In this document: positions 1-64,000 of the stretch, one piece after another | How the letters are laid out: each line of letters starts with the position of its first letter | Position numbering within the stretch: position 1 is the stretch's first letter | Assembly: GCA_050950505.1 (NCBI GenBank) | Contig: JBMNHS010000001.1 | Coordinates: 1,088,001 to 1,152,000, forward strand | DNA from: Candidatus Methanomethylophilaceae archaeon | GTDB taxonomy: Archaea; Thermoplasmatota; Thermoplasmata; Methanomassiliicoccales; Methanomethylophilaceae | Reading direction: 5' to 3' | DNA: 64,000 nucleotides | Translations under genes and position numbers: made by a program | The notes under the pieces: generated by a model | Told to the model about the DNA's origin: nothing | Database searches by the model: none | Seen by the model: only the letters and a program-made list of their open reading frames with translations

Positions 1-648
1 GTCACCGTATCTTTGTACGATTTCCGTTCCATCGGGTCAATAATCGACAATAAAAAACAGGCACATGTGGTGAACGTGGAAAACAGAACGAATTTTGCCA
101 TGGTTATTTTATACAGGATTGCGACCCAATATCAGAATTATTTGAAGCTTATCGCGAAGAAACGTATGGCGATCGAAGCTTCTATCCGCAACAAAACCCA
201 ACGTAGCGATCTTTTCGAACTTCACGAATTGGAGTCCAACCTCGTTTATTTCAAAACATCCCTCAGTGTCAATCTTTCCATCGTTGAAAGATTGGCCAGA
301 CAATTCAAATTCATGACCGACCCCGAAGACAGAGATCTTCTGGAAGAGGTCACCGTCGAAACCGAACAGGCTTTGAAGATGACCACGACTTACAGTGAAA
401 TCGTAAGAGGTACACGACAGCTTGTGCAGGCGGACATCAACAACACTGCAACGGGCATCATGAAGTTTTTGACATCCATAACATTGGTTGTTTCAATACC
501 TACGATGATTTCCGGTATTTTCGGTATGAACTTCGACTTCATCCCCGGTACTCAGCACCCTGCGGGATTCATGGTCACCGTTTTGCTGATGATTGTGATT
601 ATCTATTTCAGCATCAGATATTTGCGTAAGCAGGATCTGTGGCGTTAA
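1..648 (+). CDS. corA: CorA-family Mg2+/Co2+ transporter, C-terminal part (gene starts before the window)
   Basis: GIFGMNF signature between two C-terminal hydrophobic helices; stop TAA. Confidence 0.9.
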   Translation, partial: VTVSLYDFRSIGSIIDNKKQAHVVNVENRTNFAMVILYRIATQYQNYLKLIAKKRMAIEASIRNKTQRSDLFELHELESNLVYFKTSLSVNLSIVERLARQFKFMTDPEDRDLLEEVTVETEQALKMTTTYSEIVRGTRQLVQADINNTATGIMKFLTSITLVVSIPTMISGIFGMNFDFIPGTQHPAGFMVTVLLMIVIIYFSIRYLRKQDLWR

Positions 649-916
649 CGAACCGTATCGTCCGCCAATCCTATCGGATTCATTGCCTAGGATTAACAAT
701 TATCGCATCTGTGCTCATCAAAACCGTTCATATAAGCATCGGATGCTGTGAAGGCATTTCTCAACCAATCAATTGGTGGTTGTCATTCAATTAACGGATC
801 GATGAGATTCCAAAAATTCCGGCCAGAATCTTATGTCTGTATTCTGTGACGGTATGTGTTACGGTCATTGGATGTAACTTAGATAATTCTTTATACCTAA
901 ACCTCGTAATATATGT

Positions 917-1149
917 TGCACGCGTGGAGTTCGCAAGGATGAACAAAGAAGAATTGTCTTCTGAACGTCCGGAGCCCCACAACACCCAGGAACGGATGAT
1001 ACCATCTCAGTGCGTTACACCCGTATGCTGTGTGTGAAGATTCTTCTGCGGAGGATGAAGTGCAGGCGTAGAAAGGCTTCGGAGGGACCTCTCATGGAGA
1101 CATTCCCTCTTCGAAGTAACAACGACCTGCATCAGGCTTCACGCGTGCA
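917..1149 (+). ncRNA. Unassigned structured non-coding RNA candidate (~235 nt)
   Basis: 15-bp terminal helix 917-931/1135-1149 with G-U pairs only on the + strand; several internal hairpins; TTTATA at 890-895; T run just after 1150. Confidence 0.6.
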
Positions 1150-1163
1150 GTTTTCAAGTCTTC

Positions 1164-3254
1164 TCAGAAACTTTGACCTTTGCGGCGATCGGCAAGTTCT
1201 CCCTTCTTACCCTTGTTCCATCCGGATATCTTGGAAAAGAATCCCGTTACTCTTGTGATGCCTTCAACGTTGTCCGAATCGCAGTAAGGGCAGTTCTCGG
1301 ACAATCCCCGGGAAGTTCTGGAGCAATCGAGACAGGACGTGAATTCCGGACTGAAAGCAATCTGTCCGTTCTGTGTCTTCTCGAAGGTGCTCTTGACGAA
1401 TGCGGCAACACTTTCGGCGGAAGGTTTGGATTCTCCCAACCACACATGAGTAAGCGCTCCGGCGTCAATGATGGGGTGGAACATCCCTTCAAACCTGACT
1501 CTTTCGACGGGACTAACGTCGGCTCCGACGTTCAGATACGAGGAGTTGGTGTAATACACATTGCCGGCATCTTTGTCGCCCTTGACGACAGATCCCGCCT
1601 CTCTCGGATAATCCCTCAAATCCAATTTTGCGAGTCTGTATACGGTGGACTCCCCCGGAGTCTGTTCCAAAGTCAGTTTCAACCCGTCCCTCTTAGAAAG
1701 TTCTTGGGTTTTCTGCCTCATGTGGGAGATTACCTTCAGTCCGAACATCAAAGCATCCTTGGATTCATGCATTTCCTTGCCGGTATGATACTGAACCAAT
1801 TCGTTCAGGCCCAGAACCCCTACGAGGTAAGATGATTTTTCTATTCTGTAATACGGTTCACCGTCAAGATTCATTGTCAGCATGCTCAAGGGACCGTTGT
1901 TGCCCAACAGGAGAAGTTCCTGGATAAAGTCTCTTTTTTGACTGTGGGCTTTTGAAACCAACTCCAGAGCTTCGTCCAGATTGGAAAACAATTCTTCATC
2001 GCTGCCCGAGGACATATATGCTATTCTGGGGAGATTGACTGTAACGTTCTGCATTGCGGAGAATCTCATCTTCCAGGGGGTCTTTGCATCTTCAAGATCG
2101 GTGTCGTCCAAATTGAACGAGAGTCTGCAGCATTCGGATATCCTTGCGGTGTCGCCTCTGTCGAACACGAAATATGTGTTGCCCATCTCGGCGGCAAGTT
2201 TGCATATTTTATCCAAAAATTCTTCATGGCCCGGTGTTTCGAACATACGTTCGGTGATGTGAACCTGAGGCTTAGGGAAGAAGAACGGTCTTCCGTTCGC
2301 ATCCCCTTCCAAGTAGACCTCCATCAAAGCCATGGCAAATCTCTGAGATTCCTCTTCATAGTCTTCGTAGTTCTTTCCGGTATATTCTCCTCCGGGGCCG
2401 ATTGCGGGAACACCGACAAAATGTTTCGGTGTTTCCCAATAAATGTTGATGTCGCTGAATATCGACTGTCCGCCCCGGGCGACTGCCTGCTGGGCATATT
2501 CGTAAACAAGGATCTGTGCCAACTGATGCATTCTCTTGTCGTCCACATCAACCAGGTAAGGGGCAAGGAAGACGTTGAACGCATCCCATCCGATGGCGCC
2601 GGCGTAGTGTCCCTGCAGGGCTGCGGAAAATTTCACAATTTGTTCTATCAGGACTTCGGGGTGTCTTGCGGGTTTGGCGATGGACATGGCGTTCGGAAGG
2701 TTGAGACCGAACTTTTTAACGTATTCAATAGACTGTCCGCTGCAATAGGGGCGGTCAATCATGCCCAAATCGTGGAGATGGATAAGCCCTGTCATGTGTG
2801 CGTCAGCGACGTCGGGAGTGAAAACTTCCAGCAGAGCAAATTCTTTCTTGATGTTTTCTGCCAAGGTAAGATTGGTGGCTTCGGGCCCGTGGGGAACGTT
2901 TGCATTTTCTTTGTTGGGGGCCATTATGATTTCTCTCGCGTCATATATCGGAACTCCCAAACGGGTATGCTGTTTCCTGATGTCTTCGAGACCTCTCTCC
3001 ATAAGTTTGGCGTTTGTCAATTCTCTTATAAGGGGGGCGGTTATGTAATTGACATCGATCTGTTTTATCATACGGTCTACGTCGTTGGCGATGATCATGG
3101 CATTGAGTTCGGAAATATCCGTCTCTCTGAGCAGAACATCATAAATTCTCTTTTTATCCCACTTCTTGAGATCTTCATCTGAAGATCTCACAAACAATCC
3201 TATGTCTGTCGATTCGGCACCTTTCTTGATTATATTCTCTGTGTCCGTATGCAT
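1164..3254 (-). CDS. nrdD: Anaerobic (class III) ribonucleoside-triphosphate reductase with N-terminal ATP cone
   Basis: ATP-cone-like N-terminus, HLHDLG, C-terminal CxxC...CPYC zinc site and glycyl-radical motif RVTGF. Confidence 0.95.
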   Translation of the reverse strand: MHTDTENIIKKGAESTDIGLFVRSSDEDLKKWDKKRIYDVLLRETDISELNAMIIANDVDRMIKQIDVNYITAPLIRELTNAKLMERGLEDIRKQHTRLGVPIYDAREIIMAPNKENANVPHGPEATNLTLAENIKKEFALLEVFTPDVADAHMTGLIHLHDLGMIDRPYCSGQSIEYVKKFGLNLPNAMSIAKPARHPEVLIEQIVKFSAALQGHYAGAIGWDAFNVFLAPYLVDVDDKRMHQLAQILVYEYAQQAVARGGQSIFSDINIYWETPKHFVGVPAIGPGGEYTGKNYEDYEEESQRFAMALMEVYLEGDANGRPFFFPKPQVHITERMFETPGHEEFLDKICKLAAEMGNTYFVFDRGDTARISECCRLSFNLDDTDLEDAKTPWKMRFSAMQNVTVNLPRIAYMSSGSDEELFSNLDEALELVSKAHSQKRDFIQELLLLGNNGPLSMLTMNLDGEPYYRIEKSSYLVGVLGLNELVQYHTGKEMHESKDALMFGLKVISHMRQKTQELSKRDGLKLTLEQTPGESTVYRLAKLDLRDYPREAGSVVKGDKDAGNVYYTNSSYLNVGADVSPVERVRFEGMFHPIIDAGALTHVWLGESKPSAESVAAFVKSTFEKTQNGQIAFSPEFTSCLDCSRTSRGLSENCPYCDSDNVEGITRVTGFFSKISGWNKGKKGELADRRKGQSF

Positions 3255-5135: not shown

Positions 5136-5142
5136 AGAAAGT

Positions 5143-5446
5143 GTTTGGCCACATGGGTTGACTCCGAATCCGGATCAAGTTGTCCGCGGCGTTTCTCGAC
5201 CCTGCGATCCCGCAAACGTCAGTAGTTCAGAGTAAGGCTGCTCCCGTCAGGACCTGGCCCGGTTTCCCCGATTAATACGGTTCAGCGATCCTCCGACCGC
5301 TTACATCGTACACACTGGCTCTGCAGGACAAGATCTCATTGTCCCGATGCGGGCTTGAACGTTCAACGGGGCCGTCCCATGCTGTCACCCCAGCATATCG
5401 ACGATTTCAGGTATAGGGCACGCCGACCTCCCCGGTCAAGCCAAAC
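5143..5446 (-). ncRNA. ffs: Archaeal signal recognition particle (7S) RNA
   Basis: Minus strand carries helix 8 GCCAGGTCCTGACGGGAGCAGCC and helix 6 CGGGGAAACCG; ends GTTTGGC/GCCAAAC pair; ~304 nt. Confidence 0.93.
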
Positions 5447-5486
5447 GATTCTTTACCTACGACGATGTATTTAACCGCTTTCAAAA

Positions 5487-16890: not shown

Positions 16891-16978
16891 TGGCGCGGAG
16901 AGAGGGATTTGAACCCCCGAGGCAGAATGCCACCGGTTTTCAAGACCGGCGCCGTGGTCCGGGCTTAGCTATCTCCGC
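16891..16978 (-). tRNA. tRNA-Ser (anticodon TGA), CCA encoded
   Basis: GCGGAGA acceptor stem, CCGGT-CTTGAAA-ACCGG anticodon arm, long variable arm, GGTTCAAATCC T loop, discriminator G. Confidence 0.96.
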
Positions 16979-61030: not shown

Positions 61031-64000
61031 AGTTTCACCTCCAGGGATTTCAGGTAAGCGATTGCTTTCGATCTGTCGAGAATGTCGTGGTACCTCTGGT
61101 TGGCGTAAGTTCTGAGGCAGGAGTAACAGGAATGGTTTCCGTCGGCTCCTCCGCAGGTACACTGTTCCATCATGTTCAACGAGAAGGTCAGAACCTTTTT
61201 CAGACTCTCTTCGTTGTGAAGTGCTTTCACATAGCCGGAACCTCCGGGCGTGTTGTCAAAGATAATGAATGTGTACTCATTATCAGTATTATCCAGACAT
61301 CCGGAAACCTCTTTGTTGTCTATTCCGAAGGTTCTGCAGAATCCTTCCTGCAAAGCCTGTAAAACCGAAACGGCGGTTTCAAAATCGGTGCAGGGGGTAG
61401 TAATGAACCGTAACATCACTATGTCGGTTTTGAATATATGGCCGAGACTGAGGGGCCTCAGGAATTTGTTCTTGCATTCAACACCTCTTTCATTCTCGTG
61501 CTTTGTATCCCGCACGCCTTCGTTCTGAATTTTTCCGAATCCGCAAACTTCACAAATCATGAACTTGGTATCGTTGATTGCGGTCAAACGTCCGTTTTCA
61601 CGGGAAATCAGTTGCAATGATTCATTATCCACTGTGATTATGTCTGTTTCCCTGGAGTACTTTTCACTCAGCGATATGTCACTTGAATAGGACTTGACGG
61701 GTTTTTCAGACACGTTGGTTTTGTTGTCATTAGGATTGTACATAAACCCGAATTCAGGCTTGATGAATCTCTCCTCGCCATGTAGCTTCTCACCGCAAGA
61801 ACAGACATCCAAATCCCCCTCGTCATCGATGAAATTGTCCAGTTTGACAGAAATCTTTCTGCAGTGTCCGCATTTTCTGAATTTGTAGATAGGCCAGCCC
61901 CTTCCGTACATTTTCTTCACAAATTTACTGGTCAGTTTGTTACCGTCCACCATAACTTCGGAACCGGGGGCGTAATCCGATATTCCGATCAGCGCATTTC
62001 TTGACAGATTGTATTTTTTAGGATACGAACTGACCGGAACCAATTCCACTGTATCTACAGGGAAACCGTATTTCGGAATTATATTGTGTGAGGATAAGAA
62101 ATCGAGAGTTTCGGTATGTTCAAAAGTTGAAAGCACTCTGTCTGCTTTGCTTGCCGATCTCAGCAGTTTTCTTCTATCTCCGGAGGATATCTTTGAATCG
62201 CTCTGTTGTATGCGCGTGAAGGATTCTTCCATATGTTCGCAATCTTCCTTAAATTCCTCCACTGCCATTCTCATCCGTCCGTATTTTTCATTGAACAGAT
62301 GTTCCGTCCATGCGAAGTTGTTCGGATCCAATTTGGTATCGTCTTCAGCCAGAGGTGAATCCAAAGGGTTCGGCAATACTTTACAGAGGTATTTTTTCAA
62401 GGTTTCCGGTTCCGATTCCATATATCTTTGGAATTCTCCGTAAGAATCGATGAATTCAGGTGTTTTTTTAGGGTAGGAACTGTAACCATTCTCAACCCAG
62501 AAATAACGCAGAGCGGAAGCAAACATGTGCCTGATTGCAATGTTGGGGTTGTCCGCTTTTATTTTCGGTACAGGAATCTGTCCGTTTATCATGTCCAAGG
62601 GATTATTGAAGAATGACACATCGTGAGACATTTCCCTGCAGAACGTAACCGCGAAAGCAGATGAGTCCGGACCTCTTCCGGCTCTTCCCGCCCTCTGAAT
62701 ATAGTTGGCCGAAGAAGGAGGAACATTCCTCATAAGAACCGTGTTGAGATCCCCTATATCCACACCCATCTCGAAAGTGGTCGAACAGCTCAAAGCGTTC
62801 AGTCTGCCTTCTTTGAAAGAGTTCTGTGTCTCCCTTGCTGCGTCTATGTTCAACTGCGCGGTGTGTTCCGCGATTCTGAGATGTTTCAACGGGGATTTGA
62901 TTACCTGTCTAGTGTAGTGGTCCAATCCGCTTATATCCAAGGTGCCGTTCTTTTCCTCGCGAATAATTCTCATTACGTCTGTTTCGAATCTCTCAAGTGT
63001 CGATGTGACGCATCTGGGACAGATGCCTTTGACCGAGAACGGGAAATTCTTTTTACAGGAACTGCACCTGTAATAATGTTCGGGAATTATTACGTTCAGA
63101 CTGTCCAGATTCAAGAAACTGCAGGATTCTGAATTGTCGTATTCCAAAAAGTGATTGAAAGTCGAGAGTACGAATCTTTCAACTAAATCCTCATTGCCAT
63201 CAAAAACACTGAGAAGGTAAGAGTTCATTCTTTTGTTCAGCAAGGGTTTTATGCGATTTGTATTCTTAGTGTCCGTGGTGTACCCGTAACGGTATTCGTA
63301 CTTCTTCAGAGATCCGTCGGTATTACACACAGCCCTGTTATCTCGTATGTGTTTCAACACCGAATTTACAAGATTGTAGAACGTGTCTGTATCCAATCCG
63401 AAAGCATTCTTTTCGAACGGAACGAAGTCGTTGCCATTAGTTATTCTTCCGGCTTCAAAACGTAAAAATCCCATATATTCCATTGAACGGTACGAGTTGT
63501 TGCAGGAACATTCCCTTCTCAATCCTTCGACCAGATCGTTCTTTGGAAAGTGCAGACCGTTGGTGTTGGAAATGTTACCCAACAAAGTCACAGCTTCTTC
63601 GTAAGGAATGCCTTTCATGAACAAGTCCGTATAGTTCTTCATCGCTTCGAAAATCACACGTTTCATGAGTATTCCGCGATAGGTGTCCGAAAGATAAGCG
63701 GAAAAGAAGGCGGCAGACTGCCTGCTGTCCGAGAACGAAAGGAATCTGTCGTCCTTTCCTTTGATCAGATCCTCATAAAGAGAAGACGCAATAACAGAGG
63801 TGGAAGCATCCTGTCCCAAATACAGCTGTCTGAGAAGACCCCGTTTTGTGTTGGAGTTCTTGCATACCGGACATACAGACACTTTCTCTTTGTCACTTAT
63901 TTTTATGATTTTATTCAGATAAATTTCACCGCAATCACAGGAACGGTCACCTTCAACATAGGAAATCATTCCGCATTTGCTGCAGAGAAGTCTCGACTCT
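61027..64000 (-). CDS. Large SF2 helicase with C-terminal DUF1998 (DruE-like); N-terminus outside the window
   Basis: FSDSRQ, AEHTAQL, STTFEMGVDIG, YIQRAGRAGR and FDNTPGGSG...CTC...SCYSCL motifs; frame open to the window edge. Confidence 0.88.
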   Translation of the reverse strand, partial: ESRLLCSKCGMISYVEGDRSCDCGEIYLNKIIKISDKEKVSVCPVCKNSNTKRGLLRQLYLGQDASTSVIASSLYEDLIKGKDDRFLSFSDSRQSAAFFSAYLSDTYRGILMKRVIFEAMKNYTDLFMKGIPYEEAVTLLGNISNTNGLHFPKNDLVEGLRRECSCNNSYRSMEYMGFLRFEAGRITNGNDFVPFEKNAFGLDTDTFYNLVNSVLKHIRDNRAVCNTDGSLKKYEYRYGYTTDTKNTNRIKPLLNKRMNSYLLSVFDGNEDLVERFVLSTFNHFLEYDNSESCSFLNLDSLNVIIPEHYYRCSSCKKNFPFSVKGICPRCVTSTLERFETDVMRIIREEKNGTLDISGLDHYTRQVIKSPLKHLRIAEHTAQLNIDAARETQNSFKEGRLNALSCSTTFEMGVDIGDLNTVLMRNVPPSSANYIQRAGRAGRGPDSSAFAVTFCREMSHDVSFFNNPLDMINGQIPVPKIKADNPNIAIRHMFASALRYFWVENGYSSYPKKTPEFIDSYGEFQRYMESEPETLKKYLCKVLPNPLDSPLAEDDTKLDPNNFAWTEHLFNEKYGRMRMAVEEFKEDCEHMEESFTRIQQSDSKISSGDRRKLLRSASKADRVLSTFEHTETLDFLSSHNIIPKYGFPVDTVELVPVSSYPKKYNLSRNALIGISDYAPGSEVMVDGNKLTSKFVKKMYGRGWPIYKFRKCGHCRKISVKLDNFIDDEGDLDVCSCGEKLHGEERFIKPEFGFMYNPNDNKTNVSEKPVKSYSSDISLSEKYSRETDIITVDNESLQLISRENGRLTAINDTKFMICEVCGFGKIQNEGVRDTKHENERGVECKNKFLRPLSLGHIFKTDIVMLRFITTPCTDFETAVSVLQALQEGFCRTFGIDNKEVSGCLDNTDNEYTFIIFDNTPGGSGYVKALHNEESLKKVLTFSLNMMEQCTCGGADGNHSCYSCLRTYANQRYHDILDRSKAIAYLKSLEVKL

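Follow-up and report, generated by a model that had tools for sequence, protein, structure and literature searches.

What is the 233-nucleotide (nt) element that lies between corA on one side and nrdD on the other, at positions 917-1149 of the plus strand of our window? The window is the whole stretch of DNA that was analysed, 64,000 nt from a Candidatus Methanomethylophilaceae archaeon (contig JBMNHS010000001.1 of assembly GCA_050950505.1), and an original prediction made from its letters had proposed for this intergenic element a stand-alone, multi-arm noncoding RNA (ncRNA) of an unrecognised family. That proposal is supported, and none of its refutation tests that were run refuted it. The element is a real, expressed, independently transcribed structured RNA, and its family is new, fitting under no known one. 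We consider it reasonably probable that this is an independent gene for a stable structured ncRNA that acts in trans via its junction core and is linked to methanogenesis by its promoter.

The ends of the element pair with each other: 917-931 (TGCACGCGTGGAGTT) and 1135-1149 (GGCTTCACGCGTGCA) form a terminal helix of 15 positions, whose three non-Watson-Crick positions are all G-U on the plus strand, just as had been read at the outset. The minimum free energy (MFE) fold of this strand has -91.9 kcal/mol, compared with -69.6 ± 4.4 in dinucleotide shuffles (n = 200), i.e. a z-score of -5.04 with 0 of 200 shuffles equally good; the minus strand is less exceptional (z = -3.26). The MFE fold contains the terminal helix, GGAUG/CGUCC with AGAAGA/UCUUCU (937-970), the hairpin UCUUC-UGCG-GAGGA (1042-1055) and the arm at 1060-1132. 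These three arms had been predicted and stand; the GGATG-ATAC-CATCT hairpin, at about 993-1006, does not, as it is omitted from the MFE fold and not kept by relatives, and a conserved arm at 982-1035 replaces it. P1 closes the molecule, and P2, P3, P4 and P5 leave one junction, making a five-helix junction. With the matches of R1, a covariance model of the family with 256 positions and 57 pairs, the features of the gene are as follows (P, paired arm; J, joining strand).

869 to 878, plus strand: upstream promoter box TGGATGTAAC, specific to the family, with 11 nt between it and the TATA box
890 to 895, plus strand: TATA box TTTATA, read from the sequence, 22-23 nt before G918
917 to 1149, plus strand: the RNA, matched by R1 at 916-1149 with 224.7 bits; its ends lie within 917-921 and 1145-1149
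917 to 931, plus strand: 5' strand of P1, core GCACGCG almost invariant
937 to 970, plus strand: P2 arm, whose internal loop GAAC/GAAC is conserved; its tip differs in length between aligned sequences, relatives having 24-29 nt inserted there
971 to 983, plus strand: J2/3 single strand GGAGCCCCACAAC, GCCC and CA invariant or nearly so among 28 sequences
982 to 1035, plus strand: P3 arm, with covariation in helix 4
1036 to 1060, plus strand: J3/4 GAAGAU, P4 hairpin (1042-1055) and J4/5 UGAAG, a tandem G-A motif
1060 to 1132, plus strand: P5 long arm, with a conserved internal loop GGCGUAGAAAG / AACAACGACC
1135 to 1149, plus strand: 3' strand of P1, core CGCGUGC almost invariant
1151 to 1154, plus strand: TTTT run, a possible terminator, read from the sequence, just 3' of P1

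The helices vary by compensation, and the junction strands keep their sequence. Conserved in sequence are the outer 7 bp of P1 (GCACGCG/CGCGUGC), J1/2 (AUCGCA), J2/3 (GAGCCCYRCARC), J3/4 (GAAGAU), J4/5 (UGAAG) and J5/1 (GUAAGG), together with the GAAC/GAAC loop of P2 and one internal loop of P5. The arrangement GAA-GA-U(P4)U-GA, present in RNA types 1 and 2, has a layout like that of a kink-turn (K-turn) built into a three-way junction, or k-junction, and we read the motif flanking P4 as possibly K-turn-like or k-junction-like. A mutual-information scan, in which subfamily signal prevailed, showed no convincing further helix that would make a pseudoknot; it did reveal that the lower helix of P5 is lengthened by compensating changes in other subtypes. 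The TTTT after P1 is not kept as a T run in all relatives and is therefore a weak terminator candidate.

Covariation in homologs, a check that the original prediction had called for, is strong. In a structure-blind MAFFT alignment of 8 sequences, the RNAalifold consensus has 64 pairs, 22 of which changed on both sides. In the model-aligned set (n = 28), 43 of the 57 pairs changed on both sides; this alignment leans towards the model, and the structure-blind result agrees with it. Standard pairs fill 92.9% of the cells of the larger set, compared with 32-52% after shifting the partners by 1-3 columns, and none of 500 shuffles attained the observed values. P1 is paired in 97.2% of cells and changed on both sides in 5 of 14 pairs; the corresponding counts are 5 of 5 for helix 3 (P2), 7 of 8 for helix 4 (P3), where 13 sequences have CG and 12 have UA at the column pair 113:211, 4 of 4 for P4, and 18 of 20 for helices 7-10 (P5). 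U16-G393 is a U-G pair in 27 of the 28 sequences. Such fixed G-U and U-G pairs, together with the promoter, mark the plus strand as the RNA strand. Copies range from 233 to 271 nt, with insertions at the helix tips, and such length differences do not fit a conserved reading frame.

Does the RNA have a promoter of its own? TTTATA at 890-895 and a T run behind the element had both been pointed out, and both are present. Archaeal TATA spacing puts the expected start near G918, at the foot of P1. The TATA box proves to be part of a larger signal, being preceded by a conserved box specific to the family: the layout (A/T)TGGATGYAAC, 11-12 nt, TATA is found in 29 of the 30 copies listed, the box being degenerate in G064b. 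GGAT precedes the RNA by 46-50 nt in 24 of 26 measured copies, the other two having been mis-anchored by the script, and a TATA-like hexamer occupies the same place in all copies. In the 1.33-Mb source genome (G000), the regular expression TGGAT[GA][CT]AACT has two sites, both before an RNA copy. A position weight matrix scores the two RNA promoters of this genome at 30.2 and 31.9 bits, and the next best genome site at 18.7. These promoters are 79% identical (41 of 52 aligned columns), compared with 55% for the RNA bodies.

Sixteen run rows from 8 studies contain part of the region 860-1200, 12 of them on record as RNA, and the RNA runs are wastewater, digester and fermentation metatranscriptomes. 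Contigs of four runs from four studies were mapped onto 600-1500. The discrete transcript that had been expected finds its counterpart in contigs confined to the element in all four: X1 covers 917-1149, X3 948-1126, X5 918-1072 and X8 929-1084. No contigs lie upstream of 917 in the four runs, and none lie on corA or nrdD in X3, X5 and X8; an uncovered part proves nothing and is not evidence. Immediately before 918 the X5 contig has 14 letters of foreign origin that end in GGG, which in our reading would fit a template-switch adapter at the 5' end. The X1 contig (259 nt, depth 26.2) has 1120-1145 joined directly to 917-1149, which we take to be a 229-nt closed path plus the 30-nt overlap of an assembly at k = 31. 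At the junction, ...CACGCG-UGCA-CGCGUG..., UGCA is present once, and the junction reflects either a circular RNA or a jump of the reverse transcriptase (RT) from the 5' to the 3' end across a 4-nt repeat. Both readings agree on the ends, which are thereby placed at 917-921 and 1145-1149. A linear contig of the same run, 1120-1343, starts within the 3' end of the RNA and reaches the 3' part of nrdD; possible sources are read-through, the 3' end of an nrdD mRNA antisense to the RNA gene, and library DNA.

Known families do not account for the element. Against Rfam 15 at gathering thresholds, only signal recognition particle (SRP) RNA and one tRNA matched in the whole window, and nothing matched at the element. 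At E ≤ 10, region 650-1400 gave only Gut-1 (15.4 bits) and sR52 (12.2 bits, E 8.6), which is chance level against cut-offs of 50; the same search of 10 loci with relatives or paralogs gave 11 rows, 0 of them overlapping an RNA copy. ARAGORN found neither tRNA nor tmRNA in 700-1400. The element had been called unlike SRP RNA, RNase P RNA and tRNA and foreign to any recognised family, and each of these calls holds. Archaeal SRP RNA (RF01857) has its sole window match, full-length, at 5142-5447 on the minus strand (157.1 bits, model positions 1-317 of 317), apart from the element and with no match at 917-1149. RNase P RNA (RF00373) has no match in 650-1400 even at E ≤ 10, and the canonical gene of the source genome is elsewhere (C1:804398-804688, 205.6 bits, model positions 1-288 of 288). 

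Other candidates were rejected as well. A cis-acting riboswitch or leader, already dismissed in the original prediction, does not fit: no plus-strand gene lies downstream of the element, the next gene being nrdD on the opposite strand, and the following gene is convergent in 5 of 5 paralog contexts. No known riboswitch aptamer class appears at E ≤ 10 in the element or in the 10 loci holding paralogs. A box C/D small RNA (sRNA) would have boxes C, D, C' and D' within about 50-70 nt; the sR52 match is subthreshold, and the element has 233 nt and five helices. The GAAGA...GAA around P4 might be taken for a hammerhead, but the junction is five-way, not three-way, and there are no Rfam matches. For a Y RNA, the Ro60 domain PF05731 was not found in the source genome, which is 99.6% complete. 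For an omega RNA of the IS200/IS605 kind, the genome offers one subthreshold 20.4-bit PF07282 fragment, far from both copies of the RNA, and the neighbours of RNA copies are housekeeping genes. Full-text searches yielded no description of this RNA, nor did its terms within the searchable part of one 2026 preprint on prokaryotic non-coding clusters, whose supplements could list such a cluster.

The family is found only in two genera (g1 and g9) of Methanomethylophilaceae-like methanogens. BLASTN relatives in sister genomes are 68-84% identical, and R1 finds the RNA in 18 of 151 genomes of the taxonomic family, G000 included; leaving G000 out, these are 13 of 15 in g1, 4 of 4 in g9 and 0 of 131 in 17 other genera. 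At the order level, 7 of 63 genomes of family f1 match and none of the 87 genomes of six other families does. For the class we used a second model, R2, based on 28 sequences aligned with MAFFT and keeping only 27 pairs; it matches only g1, plus a 21-bit site in G300 that R1 did not confirm, and 132 other genomes of the class hold no confirmed match. This narrow distribution limits the claim to novelty. 

A scan of public contigs with a pattern of 14 specified bases returned at least 120 stretches, mostly chance matches in GC-rich bacteria; among 80 loci checked, R1 confirmed three, plus two stem-only fragments (23 and 15 bits), and records that it confirmed are titled Methanomassiliicoccaceae archaeon UBA370 and UBA72. 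Three pattern matches in viral contigs yielded 0 confirmed by the model. Thirty loci on metagenome contigs, with matches from fermentation and digester assemblies, hold 11 full-length copies and three further matches cut by contig ends; 6 of the 11 have bit scores identical to those of known variants and the rest come within about 1 bit of one, and we take these copies to add no new diversity. Genomes carry one to three diverged copies, most g1 genomes two or three. The source genome has two, 55% identical, the second being at C1:894335-894557 on the plus strand, outside the window (L047:1501-1723; 43.8 bits with R1, 93.8 with R2). This copy number, together with orthologs in conserved contexts, speaks against a miniature inverted-repeat transposable element (MITE), which the original prediction had named among the outcomes that would refute it.

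The promoter suggests what the RNA may be expressed with. Across the 151 genomes, 53 places with the box-plus-TATA pattern were listed, compared with nine for a reversed control pattern. We examined 24 pattern loci from genera other than g1 and g9, of which 21 have an open reading frame (ORF) of at least 80 amino acids starting within 450 nt; 15 of the 21 ORFs were sent to Pfam, six having been left out by eye as seemingly spurious GC-rich frames (L179, L180, L181, L182, L184 and L186). Corrinoid proteins (B12-binding plus B12-binding_2) lie at most 390 nt after the pattern in 6 of the 24 loci, and one locus has a CobW. Of the 8 corrinoid-protein genes in the source genome, 3 have a palindrome of type TGGATATAACATCCA or TGGACATAGCATCCA in front of them, and the left half of these palindromes is the box of the RNA promoter. 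The RNA genes may thus be read by the same factor as the methyl-corrinoid methanogenesis genes, or by a paralogous one, as the shared half-site suggests, and because of this identity co-expression with the methyl-reducing methanogenesis machinery is probable.

The 15-nt palindrome TGGAT-N5-ATCCA occurs in AT-rich promoters of the source genome at C1:50012, C1:1026951 and C1:12190(-), with further sites at C1:863782, 865526, 870387, 874757 and C2:22344. Palindromes of the TGGATATATAATCCA type presumably precede genes for cobalamin biosynthesis, a chelatase and ABC transport-like functions, judging from N-terminal translations. The TGGAT-N5-ATCCA palindromes are a candidate operator of a corrinoid/methyltransferase regulon. 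In other genera with a promoter-like box, R1 with its filters off found no RNA copy (best 7 bits). One such locus (L192, in G143) has the box-plus-TATA pattern, with the box at reverse-complement position 1501, about 215 nt upstream of a 5S rRNA gene (1196-1317, minus strand). Another (L186, in G146 of genus g16) has a GC-rich stretch of 330 nt, 1150-1480 on the minus strand, after a near-perfect promoter pattern; this stretch has no Rfam match, no R1 match and no significant fold (z = -0.94), and is probably a long 5' leader.

How might such an RNA work? The gene is transcribed from its dedicated promoter (TGGATGYAAC, 11-12 nt, TATA), with a start expected near G918 where P1 has its foot, and the RNA folds into the five-helix junction, with P1 joining the ends and P2-P5 as arms. 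We envision that it would be expressed together with the methyl-reducing methanogenesis machinery and would act in trans through its folded junction core, which may bind a protein, as in a ribonucleoprotein (RNP), or a small ligand. In part of the molecules the paired ends may be joined head to tail to a 229-nt circle, unless the X1 junction is an RT artefact. We infer action in trans through the conserved core because the RNA has no downstream gene on its strand, no protein gene that travels with it, no host gene and no antisense target. As to the last, allowing at most one mismatch in the source genome, five conserved segments of 12-13 nt have 3-7 scattered sites each, none notable besides the element itself, and an 11-nt conserved segment has about 25 sites, including two exact ones. 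Conserved junction strands with variable arms are the pattern of an RNP core or an aptamer.

Several observations weigh against this picture. The GA..GA flanks of P4 are altered in g9 and lost in type 3 copies. What the RNA promoters share with the corrinoid-gene palindromes is a half-site only, the right half being absent, and the spacing to the TATA box differs by about 8-10 nt from that of the corrinoid promoters of the source genome. That genome lacks the candidate partners TROVE/Ro60 and Rnl3 ligase and has no TnpB above threshold, and no partner protein or ligand was identified. The contigs give neither true ends, strand nor abundance. The two-genus distribution argues against a core cellular role. 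As for the circle, X1 is one contig from one run with its junction in a 4-nt palindromic repeat (UGCA); RtcB, the only RNA ligase found in the source genome, where it is encoded, requires 5'-OH and cyclic-phosphate ends; and inspection of the flanks of 30 copies found no bulge-helix-bulge (BHB) motif, P1 being continuous, with no outer helix bearing two 3-nt bulges.

Some of these points bear on whether the functional form is a covalently closed circular RNA, with the P1 ends ligated so that the helix becomes a hairpin with a UGCA loop in an exonuclease-resistant 229-nt circle. This form is compatible with the trans-acting RNA described above, and we entertain it tentatively, at slightly less than even chances. 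The X1 contig does close as a 229-nt cycle, RtcB is encoded, and circular forms of stable archaeal RNAs are reported (PMC12558985). Set against these are the single contig from a single run, with a 4-nt palindromic microhomology typical of RT template switching; the lack, by inspection, of a BHB motif in the flanks of any copy; a start at about 918, with no 5' leader that could be cut off; the failure to find an Rnl3-type ligase (PF09414) in the source genome; and, in the same run, the linear 1120-1343. The boldest combination, a new archaeal class of promoter-driven circular RNAs of about 229 nt with paralogs, driven by the factor of the corrinoid genes and serving through its five-way junction as a ligand- or protein-binding regulator, or as a ribozyme, of methyl-reducing methanogenesis, seems unlikely to us. 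Less likely still, and doubtful on present evidence, is a trans-acting ligand sensor, i.e. an orphan aptamer without an expression platform that would sense a corrinoid or methylated substrate and sequester a factor of the methyl-corrinoid regulon. Conserved junction strands with variable peripheral helices are the pattern of riboswitch aptamers, the promoter box is common to corrinoid-protein genes and the RNA stands alone; the element nevertheless has no likeness to the cobalamin or any other riboswitch family even at E ≤ 10, and the promoter link is a half-site only.

The remaining explanations have little to recommend them. That a diverged or circularly permuted known family was missed by the linear Rfam models is very improbable: permuted SRP RNA in Thermoproteus is a precedent, and if the RNA is circular its helix order need not fit a known model, but full-length SRP and RNase P RNAs are present elsewhere and there are no partial local matches at E ≤ 10 in the element or the 10 paralog loci. 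We see an equally slim chance of cis action, in which the element would terminate transcription from both sides or insulate the two convergent genes from each other, or would regulate the facing gene by antisense at its 3' end. In favour, all five contexts have a convergent gene next to the RNA, types 1 and 2 have the stop codon of that gene about 15 nt beyond the RNA, and an X1 contig runs from 1120 into nrdD; against this, a five-helix RNA of 230 nt with a conserved junction and a regulated promoter far exceeds what a terminator needs, neighbours differ between paralogs, and in type 3 and g9 the convergent gene is 55-155 nt away. Hardly credible is a relic or domesticated MITE-like mobile element with TGCACGCG...CGCGTGCA as terminal inverted repeats. 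Its inverted termini are indeed invariant in sequence, and genomes carry several copies, with tandem pairs in G064, G003, G021 and G087. Yet copies within a genome are about 55% identical, the listed flanks of copies have no target-site duplications, the conserved promoter is not part of the 'repeats', gene context is shared among orthologs, all internal helices have compensatory changes, and fixed G-U pairs mark one strand; nor is there a real TnpB (one subthreshold piece of 20.4 bits), and 0 of three pattern matches in viral contigs are real.

To our knowledge, very few large structured ncRNAs are known in archaea beyond rRNA, tRNA, RNase P RNA, SRP RNA and guide sRNAs. Stable structured ncRNA is a familiar broad category; the family itself is not. 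Among known systems, the bacterial OLE, raiA, ROOL and GOLLD RNAs are alike in being stand-alone genes with a multi-helix covarying fold, a conserved junction, variable peripheral helices and a restricted lineage, and the position of one paralog of our RNA beside a tRNA gene is a further likeness, whereas this RNA is archaeal, of about 230-270 nt, with a box-plus-TATA promoter, diverged paralogs and no Rfam 15 match. RNase P RNA and SRP RNA are alike in size class, terminal helix, multi-helix junction and a possible K-turn-like motif; in contrast to them, our RNA scores nothing on their models, has paralogs and is narrowly distributed. The trans-acting riboswitch RNAs EutX and Rli55 resemble it in their stand-alone structure and a possible cofactor-linked regulon, and differ in that this RNA fits no recognisable aptamer class, nor did the analysis identify terminator-switch or protein-binding sites in it. 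Archaeal circular RNAs include rRNA and tRNA intermediates, C/D sRNAs and circular omega RNAs. With the circular stable RNAs described in PMC12558985, our RNA has in common paired ends, a head-to-tail junction in RNA-derived data and the presence of RtcB; unlike them, it has no BHB, host rRNA or tRNA, IS200/IS605 or TnpB, and its circularity amounts to one contig.

The family offers a clean new archaeal case, with strong covariation, a defined five-helix architecture, paralogs and a dedicated promoter that seems to be regulated, and the RNA is expressed in communities of anaerobic digesters, wastewater and fermentations. It may give an entry to a new RNA-protein or RNA-ligand interaction in methanogens relevant to waste treatment and gut methane, and it provides a test case for functional archaeal circular RNAs from ordinary genes without a BHB motif. 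It could also be a route to the transcription factor and operator of methyl-corrinoid methanogenesis genes in Methanomassiliicoccales.

Within the window, the genes flanking the element are:

1 to 648, plus strand: 3' part of corA (Pfam CorA, E = 2e-45)
1164 to 3254, minus strand: nrdD, convergent with the RNA gene (Pfam NRDD, E = 3.4e-118; from the ORF table)

Neighbours vary with RNA type: corA and nrdD in G000 and G092 (corA also tested in G064), chorismate synthase and a GHMP kinase in G003, a nitrogenase-like oxidoreductase and an ACT protein in g9, a zinc-ribbon protein in type 2, and an OpuAC transporter in type 3. No protein gene travels with the RNA across these five contexts, in all of which the downstream gene is convergent; about 15 nt lie between the RNA and the stop codon of this gene for types 1 and 2, and 55-155 nt separate the RNA from the gene's end for type 3 and g9. 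Orthologous copies keep their gene context.

We also note some peculiarities of individual loci. (i) The second copy in the source genome has a tRNA gene (L047:1273-1346) about 155 nt upstream and a convergent OpuAC-type ABC transporter gene downstream. (ii) Tandem RNA pairs, known in G064, G003, G021 and G087, include G064:C32:61767-62023 with 62612-62864, G003:C6:90067-90334 with 90674-90943, G021:C2:406108-406377 with 406717-406986, and L048:1501-1728 with 1984-2226. Tandem copies lie 255-590 nt apart and each has its own promoter, the second G064 copy having a degenerate upstream box. (iii) The one tRNA match in the window, at 16894-16978 on the minus strand, is 85 nt long, exceeding the 71-position model.

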